A stretch of DNA of 57,904 nucleotides. Source: a virus (taxonomy: Duplodnaviria > Caudoviricetes). The notes beneath the pieces were generated by a model. It was given only the letters and a program-made list of their open reading frames with translations, did not search any database and was not told the DNA's origin. Location: positions 1 through 57,904 of the IMG/VR virus record IMGVR_UViG_3300030012_002820. The stretch is one strand, 5' to 3'. The translations under genes and the position numbers were made by a program. This document shows, in pieces, positions 1 through 57,904 of the stretch (position 1 is its first letter; each line of letters opens with the position of its first letter).

Positions 1-99
1 ATTACTACAGTAGCGTTAGGGTCTTTAACTCTTATGTATTGCTCATCAGCTTTTAAATCGCCATGAAATAATTTAAAATCTTTTGCAAATAATTGTCCC
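1..99. repeat. 99-bp terminal direct repeat (copy 1); circular-assembly overlap
   Basis: attactacagtagcg...aataattgtcca at 1-99 is identical to 57806-57904. The giant minus-strand reading frame continues across the join. Confidence 0.95.
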
Positions 100-3000: not shown

Positions 3001-6000
3001 GTGTTTCTAGCTCTGTTTGTATAATACAAGCCAATATATTTAACTAAATTCTCTTCTGTTCCAAACTTTTTAATGCCTTGTTTTACAAGAGGGTCATTTC
3101 TAAATAGTTTAACATAAATATGTGCGTATTCGTGAGGCATTGTATCCATTCTAGCATCAGTACTTGACCAAGCTGCTAATCTTTCCATAGCAAAACCTAT
3201 TCTACGTTTGCCATACAGAGTTAAAACTCCTTGAAATGTTTTTGTATCTACAAATGGAAAATGTTTTTTAAGTCTAGATAATATTTTATTAGCTAATTTT
3301 TTATCTTCTGTTATTAAAATTTCTTGACTACTTTTATCATCTTGAAAGCTAAAATTTAAATCATCATTATTAGTTCTATCTAAAGAACGCTTATCGTCAA
3401 TTTCTTCATCTGTTGGTTTAACAGGATTTAATTCAGCGTCTACCATCCCTTGTACTCTAGCTAATATACCTTCTTCCCAAGCTTTTCTATCAGCATCAAA
3501 TTTTTCTTGTGCTGTTTTAGTAGGATTTTTTTCTAAAGCATCAGCTCGTTCTTGTAATTTTTTAGATTGTCTCTGTTCTTCATCAATTAAAGGATATGTT
3601 TTATTATTTACTTGAGCAACAATACTTTTAGTTGTTTTATTAAAACCTAGTTTTACCTTGTCTGAAACTTGAGGAACTTCTTCAACAGGAGCTTGTTCTT
3701 TAACAGAAGGTTCTTCTTTTTTAATTTCACCATCAATTAATCTTTGTGCTAACTCTGTTTTATTTTTACCTGATACAGATAGCCCTTTAGCTTTTAATTT
3801 TTCTTCTAATTGTTTTCTATTGTTATTTTTAATTAAATCTTTTACTGTTTCTCCTGATGGAGAAATAATTTCTTTAGCTTCAGGTTCATCTCCAAAATCA
3901 AATAAATCATCAACAGTTTTTGGTTTTGTAATGTCTAAAGTAGGTACACCTGCAAGAGTTTTAGGAACTGTAAAAACTCCACCTATTTTATCGCCTTTGT
4001 TATCTTGAGCTTGTAATCTATATTGATTAGCTGTTTCTCCTTCTATATATACTCTTCCACCATCCTTTTCAACATCTCGCTGTGTACGGAATAGTTTTGC
4101 AAAGGTTTTTCTATCTCCTACAGTTGTCTTTTTTGTTTTATCTTTTAAAACATCTATAGCACCTTGAGACATTTTTGCACTAGAACCTTTTTCTACTCCA
4201 TCTGTTAAAGTTGTTGGTTTTTCTGCAGTTTCTTGTTTTAGAGCTACTTCTTGCTTAGCAGGAACCCATTGACCACTTGTACCAACTCTGCTATATCCAT
4301 TATCTTCTAAATATTTAGCTAAATCTACTTCTCCTTTTAAATAACCTCCTTTAGCTTTAAGATGAGCAGCTGTATCCATAACAATAGTAGCACCTGCTTC
4401 CATTGCTTTATCTATATTTTTATAAGCACCTTGAAGAACACCGTTAACAACTGCTTGAAATGCACCACTTCTTCTTCCATTTGAAGCAATAAATATTATA
4501 TCATCAGAAGTATAATCCCCTGTATTTGCAAGACCTTCTTCTGCGTACATTTTTTGATACCTATCAGTAGAAGAGTTTTCTACACCTTGACCTATAAACT
4601 GAGTTGCTATTTTAGTTTTGACTTGTTCTTTTGGTACATATTTTATTGCTGAACCTTTAGCAACCTCTGCAATTCTTTTAGTCATTTTTTCTTGAAGAGA
4701 AGTAGTTTCTTCTTCTTGAATTACTTCTTTTTGAACAGGAGCATCTGGAACTTTTTCACCTGCTCTATCAGTAGGCTTTGCTGAAATAGTCATTCCTCCA
4801 ATTTGAATATCTCCGCCAGCTTCAGGTTCTCCAAACTTAGTATCTGTTGGTTGAGGAGTTTCTGTTTTTTGCTGTACATTAGTTGGGGTTAATTCTACTT
4901 CAGGTTCATATTCTCCATAAACAAATTGAGATGTATCATCTGTATCAAATTCTACATCAGGAGTAATTTCTTTAACGCTTCCTGTTTTAGCAAAATTAGA
5001 TAATCCTGATATGATTTGACTTTCAGTAGAGTTTTTTGGAAGATTTAATTCTTTTTTCTGTTTATTGCTTAACCCTGTATCATTTTTTATTGTATTATTT
5101 ATTTCTTCTCTTACAGCATCTAATAAAATTTCACTATTATTTGAATTTTTTACTTTGCTAATTATATCATTTTTATTTGGGCTAGAAATAACTAGTCCTA
5201 ATATTTTAGCACCTAAACCTTTTTTAGAATTAGCATCTTGTATAGCTTTACTTACATTATCTCCTCTATTAACTGATTCATCTAATACATCTTGCATATT
5301 ATCTGTAGCAGTTAATGCATCTAGATACCTAGCTTCTAAATCTGTATCATCTCTATCAATAGTTTGTACTTCCTCTGTTTCTAGAGGCGTATCTACTGTT
5401 TGTTGTTGTGGAGTTTCTGTAGTTTCTTTTTCTGCGTTTAATATAGCATTTACTAAAGGTTCTTTTCCTTGTGCTTTTGCTAAATTAGTTCTTCCAGGAA
5501 TTTGTAATTCACTTGCTCTTTGTTTTAGTTTTTCTTTACTAAGACTAGTTAGCTCATCTCTTCTTACATCTTCAATGACTGCTCGTTTTTCAGCAGTTAC
5601 ATCTGAAATATCTTCTGTAGTGACATCTGAGCCAATTAAATTCATTCCAACTTTATTTGTTAATCTAAATATAGAAAGCATACCTGTTGTTGCACCTGCA
5701 TAACCTTCTTCTAAAGCTTGTTTATCTAACCAACTTTCTTGAAATGCTTTTTGATAGGCTTCTAAAACTCCTAATTCATCATCAGCAACTTGATTTCTAA
5801 TACCATTTTGTATAACTTGTTGGGTTGTTGCTTGTGCAAATTCAGTCAAACCTTCAGAAACAGTAGTACTTAATCCATCAGCAATAGAAACTACACCTCT
5901 AGCTCCTAATTCTTTTATTCTACTTGCACCTGATTTACTGTTTACTACTGATTTAGCTAGACTTTTTCTTAAACTTGCATTAAAAGCTTCTTCTCCTATA

Positions 6001-6728
6001 CCTCCAACTTTTGCAAAAGCTTTACCGCCTAAATATTCAAAAAGCATTGACGTTGGAGTGTACAAAGCAGCTGCAACATATGCATTATCTTGAGCTTCTT
6101 CAGGAGATAATCCTTCATCATCAACTAAAGTTTTCATCATATCTACATACATACTTGTACCTTCAAGGATACCAATTGGAGCCATACCAAGAATACCTGC
6201 CCCAACAGTAGCTACAGCACCAGTACCTAATGCAGGAGCTAGAAAACTTGCACCTACTGCGCCTACAGCACTAAGAGCTAAAGATGGTATTGCCTCAGAT
6301 AAAGAACGCAAAGAAGCATCAAAGCTTGTCCATCCAGGTTCATTTTCTTTCCAAGCAACTAAAGCTTGTAAATCAGGATTAGCAGAAATTCTATCTCTAT
6401 ATATTCTATCAGCTAATTTTCTTGCGTTTTCACCTATTTGAGCATCTTGAGGATTTACCATGCCTTTAAGACCAGCCGAAGCTGTTCTAAGCATATTTTC
6501 CATTTGGAAAGCACTACGGTCAAGAAATCCAGGAGCTGCGTCATCACCAATACTATCGTATAGCTTTTCTCCAGGACTACGCATCCTAACATTTTGATTA
6601 AGAGAGGGGAAGTTATATAATGTATTTGATACTATTGCTTCATCAGACCAATTTGCATAAAATTCAGGGTCTTGATTCCTAACAATTCTAGCTAGTACAT
6701 CATCAGTTATTTTGTCTTGTTGAGCCAT
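1..6728 (-). CDS. N-terminal ~2,242 aa of a 2,678-aa virion/ejection polyprotein containing a two-barrel (DPBB) RNA polymerase, zincin-like and SAP/HeH domains; continues through the circular join to 56497
   Basis: ATG at 6728 overlaps the TAA of the upstream gene (MAQQDKITDD...). The track lists no minus-strand ORF here, consistent with a frame open to the window edge. Hand translation gives HRNP (483-494), DWDGD (357-371), DMDGA...LKTF...FKH...DMIASPNEAK (~1180-1480) and HEYAH (3120-3134). Confidence 0.88.
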   Translation of the reverse strand, partial: MAQQDKITDDVLARIVRNQDPEFYANWSDEAIVSNTLYNFPSLNQNVRMRSPGEKLYDSIGDDAAPGFLDRSAFQMENMLRTASAGLKGMVNPQDAQIGENARKLADRIYRDRISANPDLQALVAWKENEPGWTSFDASLRSLSEAIPSLALSAVGAVGASFLAPALGTGAVATVGAGILGMAPIGILEGTSMYVDMMKTLVDDEGLSPEEAQDNAYVAAALYTPTSMLFEYLGGKAFAKVGGIGEEAFNASLRKSLAKSVVNSKSGASRIKELGARGVVSIADGLSTTVSEGLTEFAQATTQQVIQNGIRNQVADDELGVLEAYQKAFQESWLDKQALEEGYAGATTGMLSIFRLTNKVGMNLIGSDVTTEDISDVTAEKRAVIEDVRRDELTSLSKEKLKQRASELQIPGRTNLAKAQGKEPLVNAILNAEKETTETPQQQTVDTPLETEEVQTIDRDDTDLEARYLDALTATDNMQDVLDESVNRGDNVSKAIQDANSKKGLGAKILGLVISSPNKNDIISKVKNSNNSEILLDAVREEINNTIKNDTGLSNKQKKELNLPKNSTESQIISGLSNFAKTGSVKEITPDVEFDTDDTSQFVYGEYEPEVELTPTNVQQKTETPQPTDTKFGEPEAGGDIQIGGMTISAKPTDRAGEKVPDAPVQKEVIQEEETTSLQEKMTKRIAEVAKGSAIKYVPKEQVKTKIATQFIGQGVENSSTDRYQKMYAEEGLANTGDYTSDDIIFIASNGRRSGAFQAVVNGVLQGAYKNIDKAMEAGATIVMDTAAHLKAKGGYLKGEVDLAKYLEDNGYSRVGTSGQWVPAKQEVALKQETAEKPTTLTDGVEKGSSAKMSQGAIDVLKDKTKKTTVGDRKTFAKLFRTQRDVEKDGGRVYIEGETANQYRLQAQDNKGDKIGGVFTVPKTLAGVPTLDITKPKTVDDLFDFGDEPEAKEIISPSGETVKDLIKNNNRKQLEEKLKAKGLSVSGKNKTELAQRLIDGEIKKEEPSVKEQAPVEEVPQVSDKVKLGFNKTTKSIVAQVNNKTYPLIDEEQRQSKKLQERADALEKNPTKTAQEKFDADRKAWEEGILARVQGMVDAELNPVKPTDEEIDDKRSLDRTNNDDLNFSFQDDKSSQEILITEDKKLANKILSRLKKHFPFVDTKTFQGVLTLYGKRRIGFAMERLAAWSSTDARMDTMPHEYAHIYVKLFRNDPLVKQGIKKFGTEENLVKYIGLYYTNRARNTSLGKRIKIWLKQFANRLKRFFGKDVSNIEQFIAEEFYQGRMLGAEAIVGDQFIDFMTEKSEQEDATSGEEKSTDATNVTTDHHITQFYKDALGIYLDKYEHYPEMIKLAKTTKSFDEYLIKLSQWAKNIADNRASLIQGKPEKARNVAEKTTNALGQEVYKLQKENPYLFNELAMDWLKGLDKLSRFNTEDSRSQTVDSRIYQMWTIDGMTDNEKGDGIKFAGSNSRITNKKYPQNVVKNFFEKQKDKLSRLLFLPVKEISRTNVRKKDNVRFWTRANAKFNVGQLLQLENDYTNQYINQIQNLFSRSSDSSATDQKVNKIQDAWMSVIVGSKLGDNASVISSFIPKQYRPLNLTLDSYKEFFENEEKFGNINESHKKQFMSNLEKVERSANPLVNNTIDEFIENNKDLNRSEIGLEIKKYATQAIKLKAELSSNIGRYIAWQELRTPDYLIHEKSVADSMTRLSIDLAEGFQPRGLGDSTAMVIADDTKVEVMYDGEYVDAGVYGDMDGATLTAGSWFKKIRKILGGTDRIVQLKTFIRQRDVNADGSANYIAFKHMQFSPHNNIRFSNPETGEMIAEYQGSGLNGIFVDANGNKFDMIASPNEAKMRFGKEYSEDNKIINISEDSIKVHDVQRGSKKDASHPIALGEMLMASMSQSKEAKDLIKAIKEHYNNVSNHYIQEIQSIFKDSSNFKKFINTEVKAGRVPTEILKYVSLIKDDGKGIFHPAIISQIIPIINSKLVRNGLFKARATNESASKVYLKPSAHLDIKEGNVMLSSDNFVAIRQVENAYKKANNITGSIKKHYESLGIKPKEKHKRIKLLNEFLENNEVNVLIHRNPIQKVTGVVVRRVQRIHDGFHGETMFMSKEDVKNVLDGDWDGDTAQFEFISDKYASAVKKWQNSDEYKKVNKIVSVDIFASRTDKPRFDNDGNEIKTSISSKEDIYNAISENAKLDGTTGFFTNAKIIMGQLFAKDFKLFHGDLKADEQYIRVKDPNATVV

Positions 6729-39880: not shown

Positions 39881-39892
39881 AATGGATGGCAA

Positions 39893-39910
39893 ACCCCCCT
39901 TCGGGGGGGT
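39893..39910 (+). terminator. GC hairpin with cUUCGg tetraloop
   Basis: ACCCCCC-TTCG-GGGGGGT; no U-tract follows. Confidence 0.55.
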
Positions 39911-39967
39911 GCGTCTTAAAAAGAACGACATACATTTTTCACATACATACCATAGGAGATTACCAAT

Positions 39968-40090
39968 ATGAGTCTGCACTTTGACTTTCATAGCAAGATA
40001 TGGGTTGTAATAGTGAGTGGCACTTCACATCTACTATACTACTCAGTCTCACGTGCACAATGTATAGCTTATATGAATAACATGGGCTAA
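39968..40090 (+). CDS. 40-aa early peptide (not in ORF track)
   Basis: AGGAG RBS; MSLHFDFHSKIWVVIVSGTSHLLYYSVSRAQCIAYMNNMG. Confidence 0.6.
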   Translation: MSLHFDFHSKIWVVIVSGTSHLLYYSVSRAQCIAYMNNMG

Positions 40091-40190
40091 TAACATTAGT
40101 ACATATTAACACGTCTAACAAACGGAGTCTTTAGCGTGGCTTGGCAACAGAATGACGCTATTAATTAACCATTTAACAAGGAGAGAACTA

Positions 40191-40325
40191 ATGGCACAGA
40201 TTACCAAAATCATAAACAATATATCATTTTATTTATTATTCGGTTCAATATTTATACTTGGACTTATTTCAGGAATAGGACTAATTATTATATTAATTGA
40301 TGCTATTCAAAAGATTATAACATAA
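40191..40325 (+). CDS. 44-aa single-TM peptide (not in ORF track)
   Basis: AAGGAG RBS; FYLLFGSIFILGLISGIGLIIILI hydrophobic core. Confidence 0.65.
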   Translation: MAQITKIINNISFYLLFGSIFILGLISGIGLIIILIDAIQKIIT

Positions 40326-40362
40326 CTAGGAATCATTACTATTTAACTAAAGGATTAATATC

Positions 40363-40485
40363 ATGAAAGAATTATTTATAAAACTATATCACTGTTTTAT
40401 TTTCGTATCTTTATCAATGATAGCTGTGCTTGGCATAGCATCGTTTATCATACTAGTAACATCCTTAATACATAACAACATTTAA
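40363..40485 (+). CDS. 40-aa single-TM peptide (not in ORF track)
   Basis: AAGGA RBS; CFIFVSLSMIAVLGIASFIILVTSLI hydrophobic core. Confidence 0.6.
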   Translation: MKELFIKLYHCFIFVSLSMIAVLGIASFIILVTSLIHNNI

Positions 40486-40512
40486 CTGTCTTGTATTTGG
40501 TAATCTAGACAA

Positions 40513-40575
40513 TAAGCAGGTGTCTTTTATATCTATAATAATATGCTCTCTCCTTTAAGAGTAGATGCCTGCTTA
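40513..40575 (+). ncRNA. candidate structured RNA 1 (anti-SD loop)
   Basis: 13-bp closing stem UAAGCAGGUGUCU/AGAUGCCUGCUUA with 2 G-U pairs; inner hairpin GCUCU-CUCCUUUA-AGAGU. Confidence 0.6.
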
Positions 40576-40584
40576 AATTTTATA

Positions 40585-40797
40585 TTTGACTTGTGAGTAC
40601 GAACAATTCCTCGACATGGGAATAAGTACCATGCAGTGCAATAGGTTTGCAACCTTTAATAGACAATCAACGAGCAAGTGCTTGAGAGAGTCTTAGCACA
40701 ATTCATGATTAATAAACAAAAAACCAACTACAGTGTCATTGCTTTATTAATATACAGGTGGATAGACGTATCCAAAGTAGAGTCCTGTCAAGTCAAA
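40585..40797 (+). ncRNA. candidate multibranched RNA 2 (~213 nt)
   Basis: Closing UUUGACUUG/CAAGUCAAA; inner stems AUUCC/GGAAU, UGCAA/UUGCA, GUGCU/AGCAC, AUUAAUAAA/UUUAUUAAU, ACAGG/CCUGU and UGGAUA/UAUCCA. Confidence 0.6.
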
Positions 40798-40805
40798 AAT
40801 TTTAT

Positions 40806-40861
40806 ATTAAGTGAGTCACAAAACTACCTTAGTAAGACCGAAACTAAGCAAAGCACTTAAT
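40806..40861 (+). ncRNA. candidate small three-way-junction RNA 3
   Basis: Closing AUUAAGUG/CACUUAAU; inner CUUAGU/ACUAAG. Confidence 0.5.
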
Positions 40862-40863
40862 CA

Positions 40864-41076
40864 AAATGCTAAAGAGTAATTATAGATTACATATAAACTA
40901 GTTATGTTATTCCGCTCGTGTAGTTAGTTGCTACATAAACTACGAGTCACCGTAATATAGGTAGTCAGCAATGCATTGAACGTACTGCTGCTATATGGTA
41001 ATGTGTCGATAGTATTTTTATTGACATGTAATAGTCTAGAGCTGTTTAAAATACAAATATGCTTTCTTTAGCATTT
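40864..41076 (+). ncRNA. candidate multibranched RNA 4 (~213 nt)
   Basis: 12-bp closing AAAUGCUAAAGA/UCUUUAGCAUUU; inner GCUCGUG/UACGAGU, CAGCA/UGCUG and AUGUGUCGAUAG/UUAUUGACAUGU with G-U pairs. Confidence 0.62.
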
Positions 41077-41082
41077 AATTAT

Positions 41083-41173
41083 GTAAGGCTAGGTATTGTC
41101 AGTAAATCTAATAAAAGAGTAGTCTAGACTGAAAGCAAACTCTTGAAGATTTATGCTATGGCTCTAGCCTTGC
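41083..41173 (+). ncRNA. candidate RNA 5 (AGGCUAG/AUGGCUCUAGCCU motif, copy A)
   Basis: GUAAGGCUAGG/UCUAGCCUUGC closing stem; inner GUAAAUCU/AGAUUUAU and AAGAGU/ACUCUU; paralog at 42742. Confidence 0.7.
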
Positions 41174-41184
41174 TATATTTTAAT

Positions 41185-41262
41185 AGGGTGTAGACATAAC
41201 TAAAATAGTATTGATTAATTGGAGTATTAATTTCACAACCCATAATAATCAGTTTGCACCCT
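41185..41262 (+). ncRNA. candidate RNA 6
   Basis: AGGGUGUAGAC/GUUUGCACCCU, 11 bp with 2 G-U pairs. Confidence 0.55.
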
Positions 41263-41300
41263 TAGTATAATTTATTAAATAAAAAAGAGGAGCATATATT

Positions 41301-41489
41301 ATGCCTGATAAGTATGATATGGAGCTAGACGCACAACCAACTCTAGCAGAGATAAAATATCAATGTGAACATAAACATACCGAAAGAGCAGAATACTATT
41401 TTGGTAGAGATTATAGTAAAGACTATTTTTTCTATTGGATTTGTTCTAGCTGTGGTGAGGAAGTAGAGAGTGAACCTGATGAAGCGTAA
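41301..41489 (+). CDS. small Zn-binding-like protein
   Basis: GAGGAG RBS; CEH...CSSC. Confidence 0.65.
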   Translation: MPDKYDMELDAQPTLAEIKYQCEHKHTERAEYYFGRDYSKDYFFYWICSSCGEEVESEPDEA

Positions 41490-41592
41490 AGCATATTTAA
41501 GAAATAGGTCATTTACAAGTCAAGGCAGAGTAGGTGCATCAGAATTATTAATTAAAAAACTTATTAAAAAGTCAAAAAAGGAGATTAGAAAT

Positions 41593-41784
41593 ATGTCAGT
41601 GCAAGTAACAAAAGAGGATTTCTTACAATATAAAAGAGTCCAAGAAAGTGGTGAGTTTAATATGTTTGACCCATCAGCAAGAATGATGACAACTCTATCT
41701 AAAGAACAATGGGTGCATATTATGCAAAGTTATGAATCACTAAACAATGCTTGGGGCAAAGAAAATGATAAACCTGAAGAATGA
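41593..41784 (+). CDS. DUF5049-like small protein (start reassigned from 41470)
   Basis: AAGGAG RBS; VQESGEFNMFD motif. Confidence 0.55.
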   Translation: MSVQVTKEDFLQYKRVQESGEFNMFDPSARMMTTLSKEQWVHIMQSYESLNNAWGKENDKPEE

Positions 41785-41971
41785 AAAAATTGTAACATCT
41801 GTATTATCTAACGTATCTTATAAAGAGATAAAAAATAAATATCCTGATAAGATTGTTAGTGCATATACAGAAGGTCAAAGATTAGTATTAGTTTTAGATA
41901 AGTGCAGAATCAAATATGATGAAAGAATACCTCAAAAAGATGACAATGTATATGGTTCGATTCATAAATAA
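41765..41971 (+). CDS. hypothetical protein
   Basis: ORF-track ORF overlapping the upstream gene; start uncertain. Confidence 0.5.
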   Translation: MINLKNEKIVTSVLSNVSYKEIKNKYPDKIVSAYTEGQRLVLVLDKCRIKYDERIPQKDDNVYGSIHK

Positions 41972-42088
41972 ACTATTATTAATAAGATATGGTTGTCTGT
42001 TTGGTTGGATATTATGGTTGATGTTATGGTATATGCTTCCTGCCTTTGGACAAGAGCTTCCAATAAATTTTTAAGAAAGGGTAGTAAT

Positions 42089-42733
42089 ATGGGAATGGAT
42101 GTATATGGATTGAATCCAAAGAAAAGAGTTGAAAAAAGTCAAGAATTTAAAGACATATTAAGTAAATATGGTGAAAAGGTAGGAATGTTTTTAGATTGGA
42201 ATAAAAAAATACCTAAAGATGTTATGCATAGATATTATGACATAAAAGAACAATATGAGCAAGATAATCCAGGTATTTATTTTCGCAATAATGTATGGTG
42301 GTGGCGACCTCTATGGGATTATGTTTGTGTTGCTTGTTCTGATATTGTAACAGAAGAAGACCATAGACAAGGTCATAGTAATAGTGGTCGTAGAATATCT
42401 AAAACTAAATCTAAAAAAATAGCTGCTAGACTTAGAAAACTTGTTAAAGATGGCACAGTAAAAGATGCTGAGATAGTAAATGCAGAAATGCGTGGTGAAG
42501 CTATCAGACATAATACTAAAGTAGATGCTAGATTAGAACAACTACGTTTAGATATGATTAAAATGACAGGCGATAAAAATATTGCACCTAAAGATTATCC
42601 CAATAAGTATAGAAAGCAATGGGCTGATATTTATGGTGAAAGTAAAGGCATAGCTGATTATCCATTTAGTGAAGAGAATGTAATAAGATTTATTTCTTTT
42701 TGCGATGATAGTGGTGGATTTGAAATCTGTTAA
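42089..42733 (+). CDS. conserved-type phage hypothetical protein (start reassigned from 41993)
   Basis: MGMDVYG...GIYFRNNVWWWRPLW...YPF...F..F...SGGFEIC; RBS AAAGGG. Confidence 0.7.
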   Translation: MGMDVYGLNPKKRVEKSQEFKDILSKYGEKVGMFLDWNKKIPKDVMHRYYDIKEQYEQDNPGIYFRNNVWWWRPLWDYVCVACSDIVTEEDHRQGHSNSGRRISKTKSKKIAARLRKLVKDGTVKDAEIVNAEMRGEAIRHNTKVDARLEQLRLDMIKMTGDKNIAPKDYPNKYRKQWADIYGESKGIADYPFSEENVIRFISFCDDSGGFEIC

Positions 42734-42741
42734 TTAAAATT

Positions 42742-42819
42742 GTGAGGCTAGATATGGTATAGTCAATTACGGCTACAGATACTAGTCTTGGTAGAGTAAT
42801 GTTATGGCTCTAGCCTCAC
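42742..42819 (+). ncRNA. candidate RNA (AGGCUAG/AUGGCUCUAGCCU motif, copy B)
   Basis: Perfect 11-bp GUGAGGCUAGA/UCUAGCCUCAC stem filling the intergenic gap; covaries with 41083-41173. Confidence 0.7.
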
Positions 42820-42836
42820 TTTAACTTGAGGTTATA

Positions 42837-43169
42837 ATGGTTAAATTAATGCAACAAAGAGTAAAGAAATTACTTGCTTCTGAATCACGTTATCGTGTAT
42901 CTGATACTAATCTTATGGCAAGAGTATGGTATGATGATTTAGTAGCAAGAGGTAAAGATACATCAAATATGACTGCTACTGAGTTTTTAATTGAATTGCA
43001 AAAAGGCAATCTAACTAATTGGGAAACAGCTACAAGAGTTAGACGCAAACTGCAATCTAAACATAAAGAACTTCGTGATGATAAAGTATACAAAGGTAGA
43101 AAAGATGAAGAAGAACGTTGGAGAAATAGATTTTCACCTAATGTATATCAAGTTCAGCGATTAAAATAA
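42837..43169 (+). CDS. hypothetical protein
   Basis: GAGG RBS; R.SD..L...VW...E...RVRRKLQ pattern. Confidence 0.7.
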   Translation: MVKLMQQRVKKLLASESRYRVSDTNLMARVWYDDLVARGKDTSNMTATEFLIELQKGNLTNWETATRVRRKLQSKHKELRDDKVYKGRKDEEERWRNRFSPNVYQVQRLK

Positions 43170-43178
43170 AAATATAAC

Positions 43179-43207
43179 TTGACTCTAAATGTAGATATTG
43201 TTATATT
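43179..43207 (+). promoter_or_regulatory. sigma70-type promoter (extended -10) for the recombination genes
   Basis: TTGACT-17 nt-TATATT with TG at -15/-14 and an A-rich upstream region. Confidence 0.7.
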
Positions 43208-43232
43208 TAGAGACTTATTTCGTGGAGGAAAT

Positions 43233-43973
43233 ATGAAAAAAACTAGCTTTGTAGAGTCAGTTTATGGTGATTGGCTTCGATTTTTAAATGATGAAAATAG
43301 AAAAAAGTATAATGAACATAAAGGTATGTTTAGTGCATCATCTGCAGGTACTTGTTTTCGTAAACAGCATTTAAAACGACAAGGATTGGATGAACCACCA
43401 TTAGATAACAGAGTAATGAGACTATTAAGACTAGGAACTGTTGTTCATGAAGATATACAGCAGAGCTTAATAGATTACTTTAAATCTAATCAAGATAAAC
43501 TTAATCAAGTACTTTACATAGAACATAAAATACAAATTAAAGACTTAAATGTTGTTGGTCATTTAGATATTGCTATAGAAGAAGGTGACAATGTTAAAGT
43601 TTACGATATAAAAACTTCAGCCGCTTATAAATGGAAAATGAAGTTTGGTCGTAATCGTGAAAAGAATGGTAGTGTAAACTATAATTTACAAATTGGCACT
43701 TATGCTTATGCAATGGGCGAACAATTACAAACCGATAATGTTGATATGTCTTTGCTATGGTACAATAAAGATAATAGTCAATTAAGAGAAGAACCACTAG
43801 GTAACAATTGGATGAGTCTTGCTATAGAATATTGGGAAGAGTTAAATGAAACTCTTGAAGATGTAAAATCAGTAGATGGTAGCGAATTAATTCCAGGAAG
43901 TTATGGCGTACCAATGATGAATTGGGAATGTCGATATTGTGGTTTTAAAGACATACATTGTCAAGGAGTATAA
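43233..43973 (+). CDS. Cas4-like PD-(D/E)xK exonuclease with Fe-S cysteines (start reassigned from 43179)
   Basis: SASSAGTC.RK, GT.VHE, GHLD...DIKT, Q...Y and C-terminal CxxCx6C; GGAGG RBS. Confidence 0.82.
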   Translation: MKKTSFVESVYGDWLRFLNDENRKKYNEHKGMFSASSAGTCFRKQHLKRQGLDEPPLDNRVMRLLRLGTVVHEDIQQSLIDYFKSNQDKLNQVLYIEHKIQIKDLNVVGHLDIAIEEGDNVKVYDIKTSAAYKWKMKFGRNREKNGSVNYNLQIGTYAYAMGEQLQTDNVDMSLLWYNKDNSQLREEPLGNNWMSLAIEYWEELNETLEDVKSVDGSELIPGSYGVPMMNWECRYCGFKDIHCQGV

Positions 43974-43974
43974 A

Positions 43975-44346
43975 ATGGCAGATATAACTATGGAAGAAGC
44001 ATCTGAGTTTACTTTCCATAATACTAAAGATGTAACTGTAAATAATTTAATTGGCAAGTTTTCAAGTAGAGCAATTAAATCTAATGAAAAACATGGCGAT
44101 ACAATTAATGAAGTAAATAAAACTGTAGGTCAATGGGTACAAGAAGGATTAGAAGAAGCAATGGATATGTGCGTATATCTACAGAGACTAGAAGAGTTAA
44201 TTGAAGAAATTAAAGTACATCTTGTAGATTTAGGTTGGGAGACTCAAAGAATGAGTAGTGATGGTACAGAAACTTTAAAAATACTATGGGAATATTTTGG
44301 TATTCCGTGGGATGAAGCAATAGATAAAGGAGAAAATTATGGATGA
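43975..44346 (+). CDS. all-alpha NTP-pyrophosphohydrolase (MazG-like) domain protein
   Basis: R......K.G.T......W.....EE.MD...YL pattern; AAGGAG RBS before ATG 43975. Confidence 0.45.
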   Translation: MADITMEEASEFTFHNTKDVTVNNLIGKFSSRAIKSNEKHGDTINEVNKTVGQWVQEGLEEAMDMCVYLQRLEELIEEIKVHLVDLGWETQRMSSDGTETLKILWEYFGIPWDEAIDKGENYG

Positions 44347-45462: not shown

Positions 45463-46041
45463 ATGATTGACATGGAAAATACATACTTTGATGCGTCAAA
45501 TGATGGCGTAATACCAATAATTCCAGGACAATATCCTGCGCATGTTTGTGGTTTTGAAGGTAGAGAAGTGCAAACAAAAATAGGTACACAAAAAGTATTT
45601 AATGTTGAGTTTAAAATAGCAGACGCAGTTAATAAGATGGAAATTATTAAACATCAATACGTTGAAGACAAATTAGTACCTATAATGGAAGATGGTAAAG
45701 CTGTTAAAATATCAGCATCATTTATGAATGGTAAACAGTTTAAAAGTACAGGCATATGGCTCACCGAAAATCCCGCAGAAGGCGAAGGATGGCGAAATAG
45801 AAATTATGTAAATTTCTTTCAGGGCATTGGCGTAGTATTCCCAAAAGTAGAAGATAAAGTAAAATTAGCAGAAGTAGAAGAAACTGATATATTAGGACTT
45901 CCTGTTTTTGTTAAGCTAGACAAGGAATATTACGAAAAAGATGGTGAAGAAAGGTCTACATGGAAAGTATTCTCAGCTACAGCTTGGCTAGATGGCGAGA
46001 AAATATCACAAGATGAAGTAAAAGAAGACGTTCCATTTTAA
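45463..46041 (+). CDS. single-stranded DNA-binding protein (DUF669-like OB fold)
   Basis: IPG.Y.A.V N-terminus; acidic tail ending EDVPF. Confidence 0.72.
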   Translation: MIDMENTYFDASNDGVIPIIPGQYPAHVCGFEGREVQTKIGTQKVFNVEFKIADAVNKMEIIKHQYVEDKLVPIMEDGKAVKISASFMNGKQFKSTGIWLTENPAEGEGWRNRNYVNFFQGIGVVFPKVEDKVKLAEVEETDILGLPVFVKLDKEYYEKDGEERSTWKVFSATAWLDGEKISQDEVKEDVPF

Positions 46042-46045
46042 TAAA

Positions 46046-46119
46046 TAGATGTGTAAATCTAGCAGTGCCAATAATTGAATCGTAAGCACAGATTATTGGT
46101 TATAATACAGTGTCATCTA
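46046..46119 (+). ncRNA. candidate structured RNA
   Basis: UAGAUG/CAUCUA closing stem; inner GCCAAUAAU/AUUAUUGGU. Confidence 0.45.
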
Positions 46120-46189
46120 ATGTAGGGGTTGTGAGAATGAGGAGTTTTTCAAAGCTAACACCCTTTCTCCCTTCTTGCAACCCTTGCAT
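46120..46189 (+). ncRNA. candidate long-stem RNA
   Basis: 18-bp AUGUAGGGGUUGUGAGAA/UUCUUGCAACCCUUGCAU; all 4 non-WC pairs are G-U. Confidence 0.65.
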
Positions 46190-46204
46190 AAACTTGGAGA
46201 CAAT

Positions 46205-46456
46205 ATGAAAATATCAACACTAGTTAAAAGAGCATTAAAAAATGGTTTTAAAGCAAAGCCTGCTCATGGATATAAATGGTTAAAAGACATCCCTGTTGGT
46301 AGTATGTTTGAAACTGCTAGTGGTACTCGTGGAATATTATTAGATTGTGAAGTAAATGCTAGAGTTATCATTACACAAACCAATGTCAAAGATAATCCTG
46401 AAAGTTATATGGGTAAAAGGATTATATCTGACCAAACAGAAGTAAAGGAGTTATAA
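46205..46456 (+). CDS. hypothetical protein (start reassigned from 46175)
   Basis: GGAG RBS before ATG 46205. Confidence 0.65.
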   Translation: MKISTLVKRALKNGFKAKPAHGYKWLKDIPVGSMFETASGTRGILLDCEVNARVIITQTNVKDNPESYMGKRIISDQTEVKEL

Positions 46457-55600: not shown

Positions 55601-56500
55601 ATTAGGAAGTTCATCTCTATATAAACCAATAATAGCTCTTTCTATATCATTATCACTTGCGTTTACTTCTTCTCTTGGTACATTTTTTATAGTTCCATCA
55701 CTGTATTTTACTTTATAATGCTGTACATTGTTAATAATAGTTTCTCCAACCAAAACAACATCTTCATCGCTATCTACTAACCTAAATGGTACATAATTCT
55801 CTTCACTTAAACCCCAAATAGAAACATTATTTAAATTAAATCTTGAACCCATGCTTCTAATTGCTGATGTCCAACCATTAGTAAAATTTTCACGAGCATT
55901 TGATATAGGAGTAGAATATTTACTTGTAATAGAAATATCTCTATCGCTTAATCTTAAAGCTTTGTTAATAAGGGCTTGTATAATACCATATTTATCTGCT
56001 TTTGTAGCAACAAATTCAGGAGGAGAGCCCCAAATATCTATTGCTGGAATCTTACCACTTTTAAGCCATTTTTCTCTTTGCCTTATTCGTCTTACTACAA
56101 GTTTTTGTGTTGCTTTAGCAGTACGCTGACCTTGTCTTATTGTTATAGGATTTATTTCTCCTCGTAAATTTTTAGCAAAACTTAAATTCCAATCTTGTGC
56201 CATTTGAGTTGGTGTTGTTATTTCAGGACTGTAGTTTATTTCTCTTCCTGTTTGCAACATATCTCCAACAAGTGTATCAAACAGCTCACTATGTTCTTTA
56301 TATTGCAATTGTGCCATTTTTAATTTTCTTTTATTGGCTAAAGTCTTACTTTGGTTGTAAGCTTTTTGAGCAGCTTTTACAATACCCAAAGATTTATAAC
56401 CAATTAAATCAGCAACAGCATTATTACATTCAGCTCTCCAACGATTTATATGCATAGCGTCATGAACAGAAGCTGCGGTCATAGCTTTTTTACAACTCAT
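52676..56500 (-). CDS. large internal virion/ejection protein, 1274 aa
   Basis: ATGA-coupled to the giant protein; NYVPH, NTQF...LIFQYKQYP and hydrophobic C-terminal helices. Confidence 0.65.
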   Translation of the reverse strand: MSCKKAMTAASVHDAMHINRWRAECNNAVADLIGYKSLGIVKAAQKAYNQSKTLANKRKLKMAQLQYKEHSELFDTLVGDMLQTGREINYSPEITTPTQMAQDWNLSFAKNLRGEINPITIRQGQRTAKATQKLVVRRIRQREKWLKSGKIPAIDIWGSPPEFVATKADKYGIIQALINKALRLSDRDISITSKYSTPISNARENFTNGWTSAIRSMGSRFNLNNVSIWGLSEENYVPFRLVDSDEDVVLVGETIINNVQHYKVKYSDGTIKNVPREEVNASDNDIERAIIGLYRDELPNEILDGQTRLIVPSVINKKIDTIEDEAGVKPITNISPKEKDSDYLFLKRKIYEMFKSKDSTVSEDEDSNGNRVAGIHTIVRTDGLKQFKYRYVMIKQGEGANIRTESGAASEVESYKAYLIDKVQLGDMGTPVEGTRLNYIGKTIKLIDGEVESTSQDYTQAEVDKVFGREEGQDGVYYRSTEINDFGRRIAPKTGKKYKKGDPIDGTHTKQYVNFEKIENQPPKELMESVWSLVSEIRKQLKLVYDDASYKARKIENERQKLQNKLISKYRRAGLSEEEISTKIKKIIDIGGVESRVWFDESTGELRTSTTYAKMKKENYVPHLYSYPAIQEQLMKQIEAIDTKLTEETKDENRIARLTEGKQNLVSILASMGENRDGSAMVDMLANPYLKHITGWTNQVGRRKDAGIYKDYLNHMYRNIHRNQVIVETLKAISVLEDVKTPGGTIEYLSNRIKLAMGDSDTRAMTFYGGKTGYEQTAKWMNSLPNWMRGGVTHDAQSAERMTKWFTTPSTIRYLGAEPALGNQTQIVNEIIQVGFGTALDAYKLRQKFRTQMDKIVENTGVLNVLNQFSDIMNIDGDAKWNDFLFVPFFGSTPNPIQLKQFRDLLKAGKAGREKFVKEGADWADEFLIKMEMRQQGATRASIRELQELRKLKGKIDKAALAEKRGALFDFYGLTKDQSYEMVENRVRALMGNMTEAKIKKWVTWKLSWWFDEIGGPGKEIFTFTEGEKTLRSMTVLMALIDAQKRGILPGTMEDLQNGDFQDLNSKLAKKIGRDAVYNTQFGMTPMYLGEGFNGFGRLIFQYKQYPTLQSIYDWQTFKKFTDGNNSAADGMVRIANAIGSIVKQSVVQDKNKKYDPKAKNVDHEAIAMARFLFTRVMASAVGSLISVVPFLGRMLRNTGSTGFGMIRSAESPALGFAFRMGLWTSILAMNDDEEADGALGEIGNALKFLLLPVLLSYVLQLGVTGYELLTEDE

Positions 56501-57807
56501 GAGTTCACCAAACAGACATCTATATTTTTAACTTCATCATACTTTTGATATGTTTTTACAATATTCTTAACTATTTTAAAATATTCTTTTTCTTGTCTAC
56601 TTTTTTGTGCAGTTTGCTCAATGCCTTGAAAGCTTTGTTTTCTTAAATTGTTTTCAAACATAGGTAAATATTGTGCTACAACTTTATCATTCATCAATGA
56701 TAATGGTGGTAATTTTAATACATGAACATCATTATCAAAGCCTCTTAACATTCTGAATGTAGCCCATATTTGTGAATTTTCTGATAGTTTATTCCATTGC
56801 TCTTGGAATCTTTCTGTAAAAGCAATTACTTCATCATTTAAATCAGATTGTACATTCTCTGTTTTTCCTTGTTTACCAAGATTCTGTTTTAATGCCATCC
56901 AGCTATCTTTAAAATTACTTGACTCTGTATTAAATTCTTTTTTACCAAATAAAAATTCATGAGCTGCAACATAATCTTTTTTATTTTTACCAACTATAAA
57001 ATCTCCCCAAAATGGAAAATTAGTAGCATTATCTATTAATTCTTCCATAGCTAATGTATGAGCATTTCTTTTTGCTCCAACATTTCTGCTAATTTGATAA
57101 AATTCTATATCTTTCATTTTTTGACCAAGAGACAGCATTAATTCTTCAGCAGGACTTATAATGTTTTTCATTGTCAATCTGTCTCCATAAAACTCACCAT
57201 GTGTTTTTGGATTGTATTTAGGATTTGTTTTATTGCTGTCTTTATAAGACATATCTTCTCTAAACTTATCAGCATAGTCTTGACTTTTAGAAAGCTTACC
57301 ATTTTCATCAAAATGTCTATCATTTAATTGTATACTTTGAGATACATTTCTATCAAAACTCGCAGCTCTTCCTGCTTTATTATCAAGGTCAGTTCCTGCT
57401 CTTCTTTTACTAATATTTTGCCCTGCATAAACAAGACTTAACATAGCAGTCATTTTAGAAGCACTTTTCTTACCTATATTATTAGGGTCATATAGTTTTT
57501 TATTACTAACACTCCCATCTTTGTTTGCTATTTCAAATATTCTTGTTAACATAAAATCAAAAGCAGGTATATTAGATTCATCTAAAATTTTACCAAGAAC
57601 ATCATATTTGCCTGAATCTACAGCCATTTGGAATAGAGTAGATATTTCATGGTTAACTGTTGTTTGTAAATACACAGCACCATCAAAAGATAAATCAACA
57701 ACATTACCTTTTGAATCAACTATATTATCACCATTTTGTAAAATTTCATTGTACAATTCGTTACTATCTTTTTTTAGATTATTTTTATCTAATGGATAAT
57801 AGTCCAT
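56497..57807 (-). CDS. C-terminal 436 aa of the 2,678-aa RNA polymerase polyprotein (not a separate gene)
   Basis: In frame with 1-6728 across the join (...KDPNATVV|MDYYPLDK...). Confidence 0.88.
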   Translation of the reverse strand: MDYYPLDKNNLKKDSNELYNEILQNGDNIVDSKGNVVDLSFDGAVYLQTTVNHEISTLFQMAVDSGKYDVLGKILDESNIPAFDFMLTRIFEIANKDGSVSNKKLYDPNNIGKKSASKMTAMLSLVYAGQNISKRRAGTDLDNKAGRAASFDRNVSQSIQLNDRHFDENGKLSKSQDYADKFREDMSYKDSNKTNPKYNPKTHGEFYGDRLTMKNIISPAEELMLSLGQKMKDIEFYQISRNVGAKRNAHTLAMEELIDNATNFPFWGDFIVGKNKKDYVAAHEFLFGKKEFNTESSNFKDSWMALKQNLGKQGKTENVQSDLNDEVIAFTERFQEQWNKLSENSQIWATFRMLRGFDNDVHVLKLPPLSLMNDKVVAQYLPMFENNLRKQSFQGIEQTAQKSRQEKEYFKIVKNIVKTYQKYDEVKNIDVCLVNS

Positions 57808-57904
57808 TACTACAGTAGCGTTAGGGTCTTTAACTCTTATGTATTGCTCATCAGCTTTTAAATCGCCATGAAATAATTTAAAATCTTTTGCAAATAATTG
57901 TCCA
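57806..57904. repeat. 99-bp terminal direct repeat (copy 2)
   Basis: Identical to 1-99. Confidence 0.95.

Follow-up and report, generated by a model that had tools for sequence, protein, structure and literature searches.

Modular hairpin elements with a constant base and exchangeable tips in uncultured marine tailed phages

Two segments of the window, the 57,904-nucleotide stretch of phage DNA analysed here, begin and end alike and are unrelated in their interiors. What kind of element keeps its ends and exchanges its middle? Read directly from the DNA, copy A opens with GUAAGGCUAGGUAU and closes with AUGCUAUGGCUCUAGCCUUGC, while copy B opens with GUGAGGCUAGAUAU and closes with AUGUUAUGGCUCUAGCCUCAC (Table 1).

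An initial annotation, made from the window alone, had described the pair as a duplicated RNA motif. The duplication is real. Both copies carry the same 14 nucleotides, UAUGGCUCUAGCCU, without change, and the three differences in the closing stem that preserve pairing (A-U to G-C, U-G to U-A, G-U to A-U) are as it reported. GUCA does follow the 5' arm, and is the 5' strand of a short helix, P2. The feature it took for a GC bulge on the 3' side is instead part of UGGC, which comparative data place opposite GUCA in the same helix.

Two copies and a wider family

Exact matches to either half of the motif occur in the window only at copies A and B. The joint two-half pattern is found twice on the forward strand, never on the reverse strand and never in the control. 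When up to three mismatches are allowed, the halves are not in excess in the window (3 against 4.4 expected, and 19 against 16.6 expected). Folding of the plus strand, compared with shuffled sequences, gives z values of -3.2 for copy A and -4.0 for copy B. The motif is placed beyond chance by its relatives in many other phage contigs, which share the core and the covarying stems.

These relatives were collected with the covariance-model search that had been proposed as a check. In the viral and metagenome loci retrieved, model R1 gives 102 matches (87 in 95 sources, then 15 in 34 further sources), with scores of 47.8-88 bits. This number does not count independent events, because the sequences are related to one another, P1 pairing helped to select them and the alignment built from them was fitted to the model. 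Pairing is conserved among the matches, and helices P1 and P3 covary. Members are 58-136 nt long. Exact-pattern scans found the core in 7 viral contigs and in 103 metagenome stretches; with P1 left unconstrained, P1 was paired in 16 of 47 rows. Chance pattern matches score at most 30 bits with R1. One of these, in a contig of a Chloroflexota metagenome-assembled genome (L051, 15.6 bits), was rejected, as were 11 of the 12 matches of a second genome scan (at most 25 bits, or not listed). L050 is a true match on a 47-kb contig, and its element and immediate flanks are identical to those of L005.

The element has no match in Rfam 15. The whole window gives none at the gathering score, positions 40600-43300 yield nothing relevant at E<=10, and 11 loci with other subtypes yield nothing relevant at E<=1. 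A literature search with the core strings returned unrelated primer sequences only; a catalogue of candidate viral RNAs (PMC10690425) may list the motif in its supplements.

By megablast, positions 40000-44000 of the window have no counterpart in cultured phages. The DnaB-like protein has distant relatives only (at most 30% identity), and so does the TerL protein (about 24% identity, N4-like phages). Between contigs, the proteins that flank the element share 8-32% identity or are unrelated, yet the core is unchanged and the base almost invariant. On sequence comparison, a conserved core beside such diverged proteins points to probable selection on the element, which is part of the case for the reading preferred below. 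Copies A and B belong to this element, which is structured, conserved among uncultured marine tailed phages and missing from Rfam. As a structured RNA family it is well supported, with about a hundred natural examples.

Table 1. Positions of the two copies and their parts in the window
Feature	Position	Strand	Basis or remark
Conserved non-coding leader preceding copy A	40866..41082	+	near-same in L106; context, not counted as element
Copy A, whole element, 91 nt	41083..41173	+	80.7 bits, model R1
Copy A P1, 5' strand GUAAGGCUAG, partner 41164-41173	41083..41092	+	P1 covariation
Copy A 5' bulge GUAUU	41093..41097	+	invariant in alignment A5; 4-nt bulge in most RNAfold single-sequence folds
Copy A P2, 5' strand GUCA, partner UGGC 41159-41162	41098..41101	+	P2 cells 100% paired
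Copy A P3, 5' strand, partner 41147-41154	41102..41109	+	first 4 P3 pairs covary
Copy A apical module	41110..41146	+	tip unrelated in L106 ortholog; many indels in X2 relative
Copy A 10-nt perfect palindrome AGUCUAGACU, in apical module	41121-41130	+	
Copy A 3' bulge GCUA	41155..41158	+	GYUA in nearly all members
Copy A P2 3' strand UGGC, single U, P1 3' strand CUAGCCUUGC	41159..41173	+	
Copy B, whole element, 78 nt	42742..42819	+	47.8 bits, model R1
Copy B P1	42742-42751/42810-42819	+	
Copy B 5' bulge, enlarged	42752-42761	+	
Copy B P2	42762-42765/42805-42808	+	
Copy B P3	42766-42770/42796-42800	+	
Copy B apical module, recurrent type	42771..42795	+	also in L005, L006, L022, L106
Copy B palindrome ACUAGU, in apical module	42781-42786	+	
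Copy B 3' bulge GUUA	42801-42804	+	

A constant base and exchangeable tips

The element consists, in order, of a closing helix P1, a 5' bulge (UAUU), P2 (GCCA with UGGC), a 3' bulge (GYUA), a third helix P3 and an apical module. The two bulges lie on opposite strands and give a helix-bulge-helix-bulge-helix base with two-fold pseudo-symmetry. P1 spans 6-13 bp and its sequence is free to covary. The bulges are 4 nt each, or 5 and 1, with the variants CAUU, UAGU, UAU and GAUA. The 5' bulge of copy B has about 5 extra nucleotides. In copy A, G41093 may pair with U41163 as G.U, and the bulge is then UAUU.

Alignment A6, made from the first 87 hits, has 69 distinct rows, and 96.1% of its cells are paired; slid controls reach 30-44%, and the observed values are attained by none of 500 shuffles. 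Both sides have changed in nine of the ten P1 pairs and in three of the first four pairs of P3, which played no role in match selection. A 16-sequence alignment agrees with this picture, and most RNAfold predictions from single sequences arrive at this base independently.

About 20 conserved nucleotides are concentrated in the bulges and P2, and the first P1 pairs beside this core are conserved in sequence too. The four pairs of P2 are paired in all cells and show one-sided changes only, the constancy of P2 and the bulges being largely imposed by the search patterns. Scans with P2 left free gave nine true or near-true matches (eight canonical and one degenerate) and did not find an alternative P2. 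The first P3 pair is G.U in 58 of 69 rows, and one P1 pair has eight G.U in A6. The strand that folds is the gene-sense strand, because these pairs would be A.C mismatches on the other one.

The annotation had pictured a constant handle with interchangeable apical parts, and this picture holds across the family: the base is near-invariant across diverged contigs, a tip has been swapped in L106, and tip types recur. At the ortholog of copy A in L106, the flanks are near-identical to those in the window and the apical part is unrelated. The leader upstream is closely conserved between the two save one indel, and 40862-41180 folds with a z value of -4.3. In a relative from a DNA run, X2, the apical module of copy A differs, with many indels. 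The same apical types are also found on bases at different genome positions.

Whole elements come and go as well. The X2 contig has 9 nt where the window has 42732-42845 (114 nt), so copy B is absent from it. Between the window and L007, presence of the element differs at two junctions. In these relatives the flanking genes are kept and the hairpin alone differs.

The apical parts are mostly base-paired, and many are palindromic. A perfect palindrome of at least 8 nt is present in 30 of 71 distinct tips, where 6.4 are expected, and lacking in the other 41. Perfect palindromes of 8-14 nt are carried by about 40% of tips, and at least 12 of them are distinct. In 13 type-I tips, the two adjacent central bases are AU (9), UA (2), GC (1) or GU (1). 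Adjacent bases cannot pair within one molecule and could do so in trans only. Terminal loops of 4 nt come in 12 distinct forms, of which 4 are palindromes where a fraction of 1/16 would be expected. Taken together, palindromes with covarying centres suggest that the RNA may pair with itself. As for pseudoknots between the 5' bulge and the tips, CAAUA is present in 14 of 71 tips (3.6 expected), mostly in type-I tips, which are related to one another; no enrichment is seen for AAUAC, UAGC or UAAC.

Genomic setting and expression

The element lies within a block of replication and recombination genes. It is overlapped by no same-strand ORF at 73 of 77 sites, is co-oriented with its neighbours and often starts 0-30 nt past a stop codon. 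All 22 matches near an SSB-like gene are co-oriented with that gene, and 19 of the 22 lie at most 240 nt downstream of it. In the window, copies A and B stand away from the SSB-like gene (45463-46041), and the spacer downstream of that gene is without the element. A 93-aa beta-barrel protein is encoded at 46175-46456. Position also varies between collinear relatives. Because the element sits in different places in different genomes, its function is not tied to any single neighbouring gene.

Genomes carry one to three copies: two in the window, three in L106 and two in L172. Five relatives' records (76-100% complete) have one strong match each, one of them with an extra weak match of 12.8 bits. 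Across the wider group the element is dispensable: 58 of 80 loci encoding an SSB-like protein have no match within 6 kb, a figure in which divergent forms may be missed. Relatives that lack the element have other strong folds in the same spacer, one of them common to 28 loci.

A search for a co-occurring gene, which the annotation had called for, returned no linked partner among the proteins within 6 kb either side in 22 loci with the element and 58 without. The best-separating protein family is present in 7 of 22 loci with the element and 0 of 58 without, which looks like clade structure. Among its own proteins the phage has no TROVE, RNase III, splicing endonuclease or reverse transcriptase.

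There is a hint that the copy A region is transcribed. Metatranscriptome contigs of study P7, from runs X18 and X19, cover 40862-41133 and 40862-41078 with 0 differences from the window; such contigs carry no RNA ends, strand or level. In the window, RNA-library contigs also extend over the spacer of the SSB-like gene and the 3' end of the gene itself, and none from the RNA runs covers copy B or most genes of 41.3-45.4 kb.

What the element may be

The explanation that fits best, and only tentatively, is a modular RNA whose constant base would serve as a platform for recognition or processing. The element would be transcribed on the sense strand of the early or replication gene block. A host or phage protein would recognise the constant base, and might either bind the hairpin or free it as a small RNA from the polycistronic transcript; binding by a protein or processing enzyme had been proposed from the outset. 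The apical module would carry the variable function, and in about 40% of members a palindromic loop may let two copies of the same RNA pair.

One architectural parallel is the archaeal bulge-helix-bulge motif, which has a 4-bp helix between 3-nt bulges on opposite strands. The phage element shares the outer helix, bulge, 4-bp helix, opposite-strand bulge and inner helix, together with the pseudo two-fold symmetry. It differs in that its bulges are 4 nt (or 5 and 1) and conserved in sequence. In addition, the phage has no splicing endonuclease (tRNA_int_endo), and its gene content is bacterial in look (DnaB-like helicase, SD sites).

Alternatively, the hairpin may act purely in cis, as an intercistronic signal for mRNA processing or stability, with no trans-acting RNA. 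It would guard the 3' end of the upstream message, often that of the SSB-like gene, and/or free the next ribosome-binding site. The RNase III signals of T7-like phages are of this kind: hairpins between cistrons, in the same orientation as the genes, that have a bulge or internal loop and stand near the next ribosome-binding site. The intergenic, co-oriented placement shortly after stop codons suits such a role, as does the position just behind the SSB-like gene in 19 of 22 matches. An SD-like motif and start codon follow within 45 nt at 42 of 76 sites. The other strong folds in the same spacer of relatives and the RNA-library contigs over the SSB-like gene's 3' end and spacer are in keeping with it too. 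However, RNase III is known to need far less core conservation than is seen here, and a generic barrier or RNase III site does not call for a P2 and bulges that hardly vary between phages with only 8-32% protein identity. One to three copies per genome are also few beside the many junctions available. Copy A and the cluster in L106 are found in long stretches of non-coding DNA, not between closely spaced genes, and the conserved tip types and palindromes are left unexplained. A purely cis-acting role is a possible, rather unlikely, alternative.

A further possibility, unlikely on present evidence, takes the palindromes as central. A small RNA with a pseudo-symmetric core would pair with itself through its type-specific loop, and the symmetric dimer would be bound or cut by a dimeric factor, or be catalytic. 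Retroviral dimerisation hairpins, phi29 pRNA and ROOL/GOLLD RNAs likewise have loops that covary while staying complementary between molecules. Unlike these, the element is a small hairpin whose loops are palindromes (homotypic) in about 40% of members. In the phi29 comparison, Rfam gives no pRNA match, and palindromic loops suggest possible homotypic pairing in 30 of 71 tips. If the dimer were real, it would be a new class of phage RNA particle, and the exchangeable tips would be a specificity code that keeps paralogs in one genome from cross-pairing.

Could the element act as DNA instead? A folded single-strand priming or recombination site, or a non-autonomous mobile hairpin (MITE-, REP- or attC-like), would account for its differing presence at orthologous junctions (X2 without copy B; the window against L007), for the tip swap between near-identical flanks, for perfect palindromes in the tips and for its location among replication and recombination genes. 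PeSL cassettes of T4-type phages and attC sites are short conserved intergenic hairpin units, co-oriented with genes and variably present between close relatives, all of which holds for the element. Integron attC sites further combine constant paired boxes with extrahelical bases and a variable tip. Unlike either, the element usually has one copy per genome, no promoter consensus attached to it and no integrase; moreover, it is gained and lost alone, not as a gene with its site as in attC cassettes. The virus record contains no Phage_integrase domain (tyrosine recombinase) and no Y1_Tnp domain (Y1/HUH transposase), and the phage has no reverse transcriptase. Comparison with X2 reveals no evident target-site duplication at copy B. 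The interiors of the copies are unrelated, unlike those expected of a mobile unit that spread recently. RNA accounts better than DNA for the conserved G.U pairs and for palindrome variants that contain G.U, and the folded strand always matches transcription. An element acting as DNA is improbable. A DNA hairpin promoter of the N4 style was also rejected: for the giant ORFs no matching PDB chain or family was found, and G.U pairs again fit RNA. N4-style hairpin promoters are far smaller than the element.

By its outline the element could be a candidate small self-cleaving ribozyme of a new class, the bulges and P2 forming an active core that cuts the operon transcript. It has some 20 conserved nucleotides in its bulges and P2, covarying helices of free sequence on either side and a stem at the periphery that varies, much as such a ribozyme would, and known small ribozymes typically occur in just such an intergenic, co-oriented setting in phages. 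Yet no Rfam ribozyme model matches, the X18 contig (40862-41133) extends unbroken from the leader into copy A, past P1, the 5' bulge and P2, and the conserved first P1 pairs point more to protein recognition. Such a ribozyme is decidedly improbable.

An intrinsic terminator or attenuator is very improbable. The hairpin is long and stable and its 3' side U-rich (over the 8 nt that follow P1 the mean U fraction is 0.51, and 30 of 76 sites have five or more U there), but 46 of the 76 sites are without such a tract and a UUUU run occurs at 10. A terminator scan of the window lists nothing at either copy, genes follow at once in the same operon, and the conserved bulges would be unexplained.

Least probable of all, and by now barely credible, is the Y-RNA-type or guide-type scaffold first suggested, with a Ro60-like or nuclease-bound handle and a target-pairing tip. 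The element does resemble Y RNAs and YrlA in its paired 5' and 3' ends, its terminal stem with a conserved bulged helix and its variable remainder, and paralogs can stand side by side, as the three in L106 do. The analogy does not extend to family membership: the core sequence is unrelated, there is no Rfam Y_RNA or YrlA match, the entire virus record, searched in six frames with positive controls, has no TROVE/Ro60 match, and ARAGORN, a weak test for the YrlA tRNA-like module, found no tRNA-like gene in the window. A guide role fares no better, with tips mostly base-paired and antisense targets in the phage not above shuffled controls (14 nt for copy A, reached in 18 of 200 shuffles; 10 nt for copy B).

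Whichever role the base may have, the element is a rare and clean case of modularity: the base stays constant, one tip type can stand on different bases, and tips are exchanged between flanks that are near-identical. It bears on how phages use small structured RNAs, and on a possible bacterial-virus counterpart of the archaeal helix-bulge-helix-bulge platform for RNA processing. It also bears on possible self-association of small phage RNAs, of the kind reported for large phage-associated RNAs, whose RNA-only complexes are described in a preprint (10.1101/2024.12.08.627333). The element is small enough for direct biochemistry without a cultured host.

Two copies of a structured element

The initial annotation described two look-alike stretches with common arms, and direct reading of the sequence bears this out. 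The 5' arm and the 3' arm recur in copies A and B, with 14 bases the same in both (UAUGGCUCUAGCCU). Neither half has an exact match elsewhere in the window, and the joint two-half pattern is found twice in the forward direction, never in reverse and never in the control. Folding of the + strand beats shuffled sequences in both copies (z -3.2 and -4.0); the - strand folds are weaker against shuffles. In the window (57.9 kb, rated complete, G+C ~31%) a tRNA search gave nothing, and Rfam gave no match at gathering scores, nor at E<=10 around the copies. Both lie in a + strand block of early and replication genes, with structural genes on the - strand.

Positions of the elements and other features in the window
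Feature	Position	Strand	Remark
Copy A	41083-41173	+	read directly in sequence
Copy B	42742-42819	+	read directly in sequence
PD-(D/E)XK nuclease	43179-43973	+	early/replication block
DUF932 protein		+	early/replication block
Dam-type methylase		+	early/replication block
Match to spore-photoproduct-lyase family		+	early/replication block
DnaB-like helicase		+	early/replication block
Holliday-junction resolvase		+	early/replication block
SSB-like gene	45463-46041
Spacer after SSB-like gene	46042-46174		133 nt
93-aa conserved protein	46175-46456		directly downstream of element in most relatives
Leader before copy A	40866-41082		non-coding
RNA-covered stretch	40609-40799		~190 nt
Stretch missing in X2 relative	40174-40321		148 nt
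G+C-rich hairpin	39886-39915		just 3' of small + strand ORF
Giant ORF	3-6728 and 56497-57903	-	2242 + 468 aa

Two RNA-library runs of a single study (X18 and X19) gave contigs that match the window without a difference, over 40862-41133 and 40862-41078; the longer (X18) extends into copy A. Because such contigs give no ends, strand or level, they are only a hint of transcription. The leader is closely similar in the related contig L106 save one indel, and this homology begins where the two RNA-library contigs begin (40862). Together, 40862-41180 folds with z -4.3 and has no Rfam match. The RNA-covered stretch further upstream is represented in three runs (two studies) by contigs identical to the window. 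Its sole candidate, a 60-aa GTG ORF (40678-40860), is not convincing as a gene, and the stretch folds no better than shuffles (z -1.2).

Elsewhere in the record, the hairpin (C6-UUCG-G7) in an A+T-rich non-coding region looks terminator-like. The giant ORF, apparently spanning the record ends, is followed by a 1274-aa ORF; neither has a Pfam, PHROG or PDB sequence match. The record is probably circularly permuted.

Distribution and fold of the family

The exact two-half pattern matched seven further viral contigs, and 46 viral loci when the closing helix (P1) was left free. With L050, a contig from a metagenome-assembled genome (MAG) found in a genome scan, these gave 47 rows. P1 is paired in 16, and the same 16 hold additional conserved bases outside the pattern requirements. 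A covariance model, R1, was built from the alignment of these 16 sequences. One metagenome scan yielded 103 stretches, many on ocean-survey (TARA) scaffolds. All R1 matches (87 in 95 sources and a further 15 in 34 sources) lie at 47.8-88 bits; pattern matches due to chance do not exceed 30 bits. Across prokaryotes (one genome per species, 185,579 species) the single true match was in the 47-kb L050, which agrees exactly with viral contig L005 over the element and its immediate flanks. DNA runs containing the window sequence are marine or seawater metagenomes. No element subtype matches Rfam 15. Among the papers searched, none of relevance contains the core strings; the motif may be included in the supplements of PMC10690425 (2023), which catalogues 8,495 candidate viral RNAs.

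The large alignment, which is fitted to R1 and contains related sequences (87 R1 matches, 69 distinct rows), has 96.1% of cells paired. Both sides have changed at 9 of 10 P1 pairs, on which matches were partly selected, and at three of the first four pairs of the P3 helix, which were not used in selection. None of 500 shuffles reached the observed pairing values, and pairing falls to 30-44% when partners are slid. The smaller alignment of 16 sequences agrees. That the gene-sense strand folds is shown by conserved G.U pairs, present at the first P3 pair in 58 of 69 rows and at one P1 pair in 8, and the element is always oriented as its adjacent genes are.

Between P1 and P3 lies a 4-bp helix, P2 (GCCA/UGGC), paired in every row with only one-sided changes (GUCA, GCUA, GCCG), a constancy mostly imposed by the search patterns. 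With this region left free, 8 of 9 matches were canonical and one degenerate. For most single sequences RNAfold predicts the same base as the comparative model. On the 5' side P1 closes with a G.U pair, followed by a 4-nt bulge (UAUU) and P2, which continues directly into P3; the return strand has a 4-nt bulge (GYUA), then P2, then P1. Members found by the model, unforced by the patterns, also have a 5' bulge of CAUU, UAGU or UAU, or a 3' bulge of GAUA. The GUCA reported after the 5' arm is present and pairs with UGGC in P2. The bases described as a conserved GC bulge thus belong to P2, where they pair with this GUCA.

Tips, gain and loss

The 71 distinct tips can be grouped into types that recur from one base to another and from place to place; that of copy B is also present in L005, L006, L022 and L106. 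Perfect palindromes of 8-14 nt occur in 30 of the 71, against 6.4 expected from shuffles, and are of at least 12 different kinds; the other 41 have none. Counted more strictly, palindromes make up 4 of the 12 distinct 4-nt terminal loops, where 1/16 would be expected. Type-I tips (n=13) keep the symmetry of a 10-nt palindrome, with AU (9), UA (2), GC (1) or GU (1) as its two central adjacent bases. Since adjacent bases cannot pair inside one hairpin, this pattern and its G.U intermediate suggest intermolecular pairing. The palindrome signal for pairing between two RNA molecules is suggestive, not proven.

At L236 (~6660-6720) another hairpin scaffold, located after the SSB-like gene, carries a loop closely resembling that of the short type III tips (..AACAUGGUAUUGUGG..), suggesting that tip modules are independent units.

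Copies also come and go. A contig from DNA run X2 has 9 nt in place of 42732-42845 and so is missing copy B; its copy A has many indels in the tip. Its source is 96-98% identical to the window in neighbouring pieces; since the comparison was made at 85% likeness, it counts as a relative rather than the same strain. A further indel, the loss of a 148-nt stretch (40174-40321), sets this relative apart in the non-coding DNA that separates the two gene blocks. L106 holds three copies inside 700 nt, of which the third is the ortholog of copy A; its flanks are near-identical to those in the window (mean column identity 85% over the whole alignment), and its tip is unrelated. Five relatives' records (76-100% complete) have one strong match each, one of them with an additional weak match of 12.8 bits.

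Neighbours and possible roles

Most relatives carry the element just 3' of the homologous SSB-like gene (<=240 nt downstream in 19 of 22 matches). The window instead has an unrelated folded sequence there, with two predicted hairpins, so collinear relatives differ in where the element sits. This spacer is covered by RNA-library contigs. A match lies within 6 kb in 22 of 80 loci encoding the SSB-like protein, making the element optional in the wider group; at 28 element-free loci the same spacer holds a different conserved, strongly folded sequence. The SSB-like family ends in DVPF, and its predicted model (pLDDT 85.8) has PDB matches to SSB-type folds only, all weak (E about 1e-3, TM 0.25-0.46). 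The 93-aa protein is predicted to have an N-terminal helix and a small beta-barrel, weakly matching the ATP-synthase alpha N-barrel and ribosomal uL2. No protein family tracks the element within 6 kb.

At 73 of 77 non-redundant sites no ORF on the same strand overlaps the element, and many sites lie 0-30 nt past a stop codon. A Shine-Dalgarno-like motif and start codon follow within 45 nt at 42 of 76. The main alternative is a purely cis-acting intercistronic hairpin for processing or stability. Weaker is a DNA-level or mobile hairpin; the G.U pairs point to folding of the gene-sense strand, and no phage-encoded reverse transcriptase, tyrosine recombinase or Y1 transposase was found. A new self-cleaving ribozyme and a terminator are likewise weaker candidates; the terminator reading does not hold as a rule, since only 30 of 76 sites have a U-rich tail.

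Membership of the Y RNA family, to which the element had been likened, is rejected: there is no Rfam match and no phage-encoded TROVE/Ro60. Phage-encoded splicing endonuclease and RNase III were not found either. The suggestion of a guide gains no support, as antisense matches of the two copies' tips within the phage do not exceed those of shuffles.

The best-supported reading is a modular RNA with a constant base and exchangeable tips. The pseudo-symmetric base would serve as a recognition or processing platform, and the tips would be functional modules, of which some self-pair.
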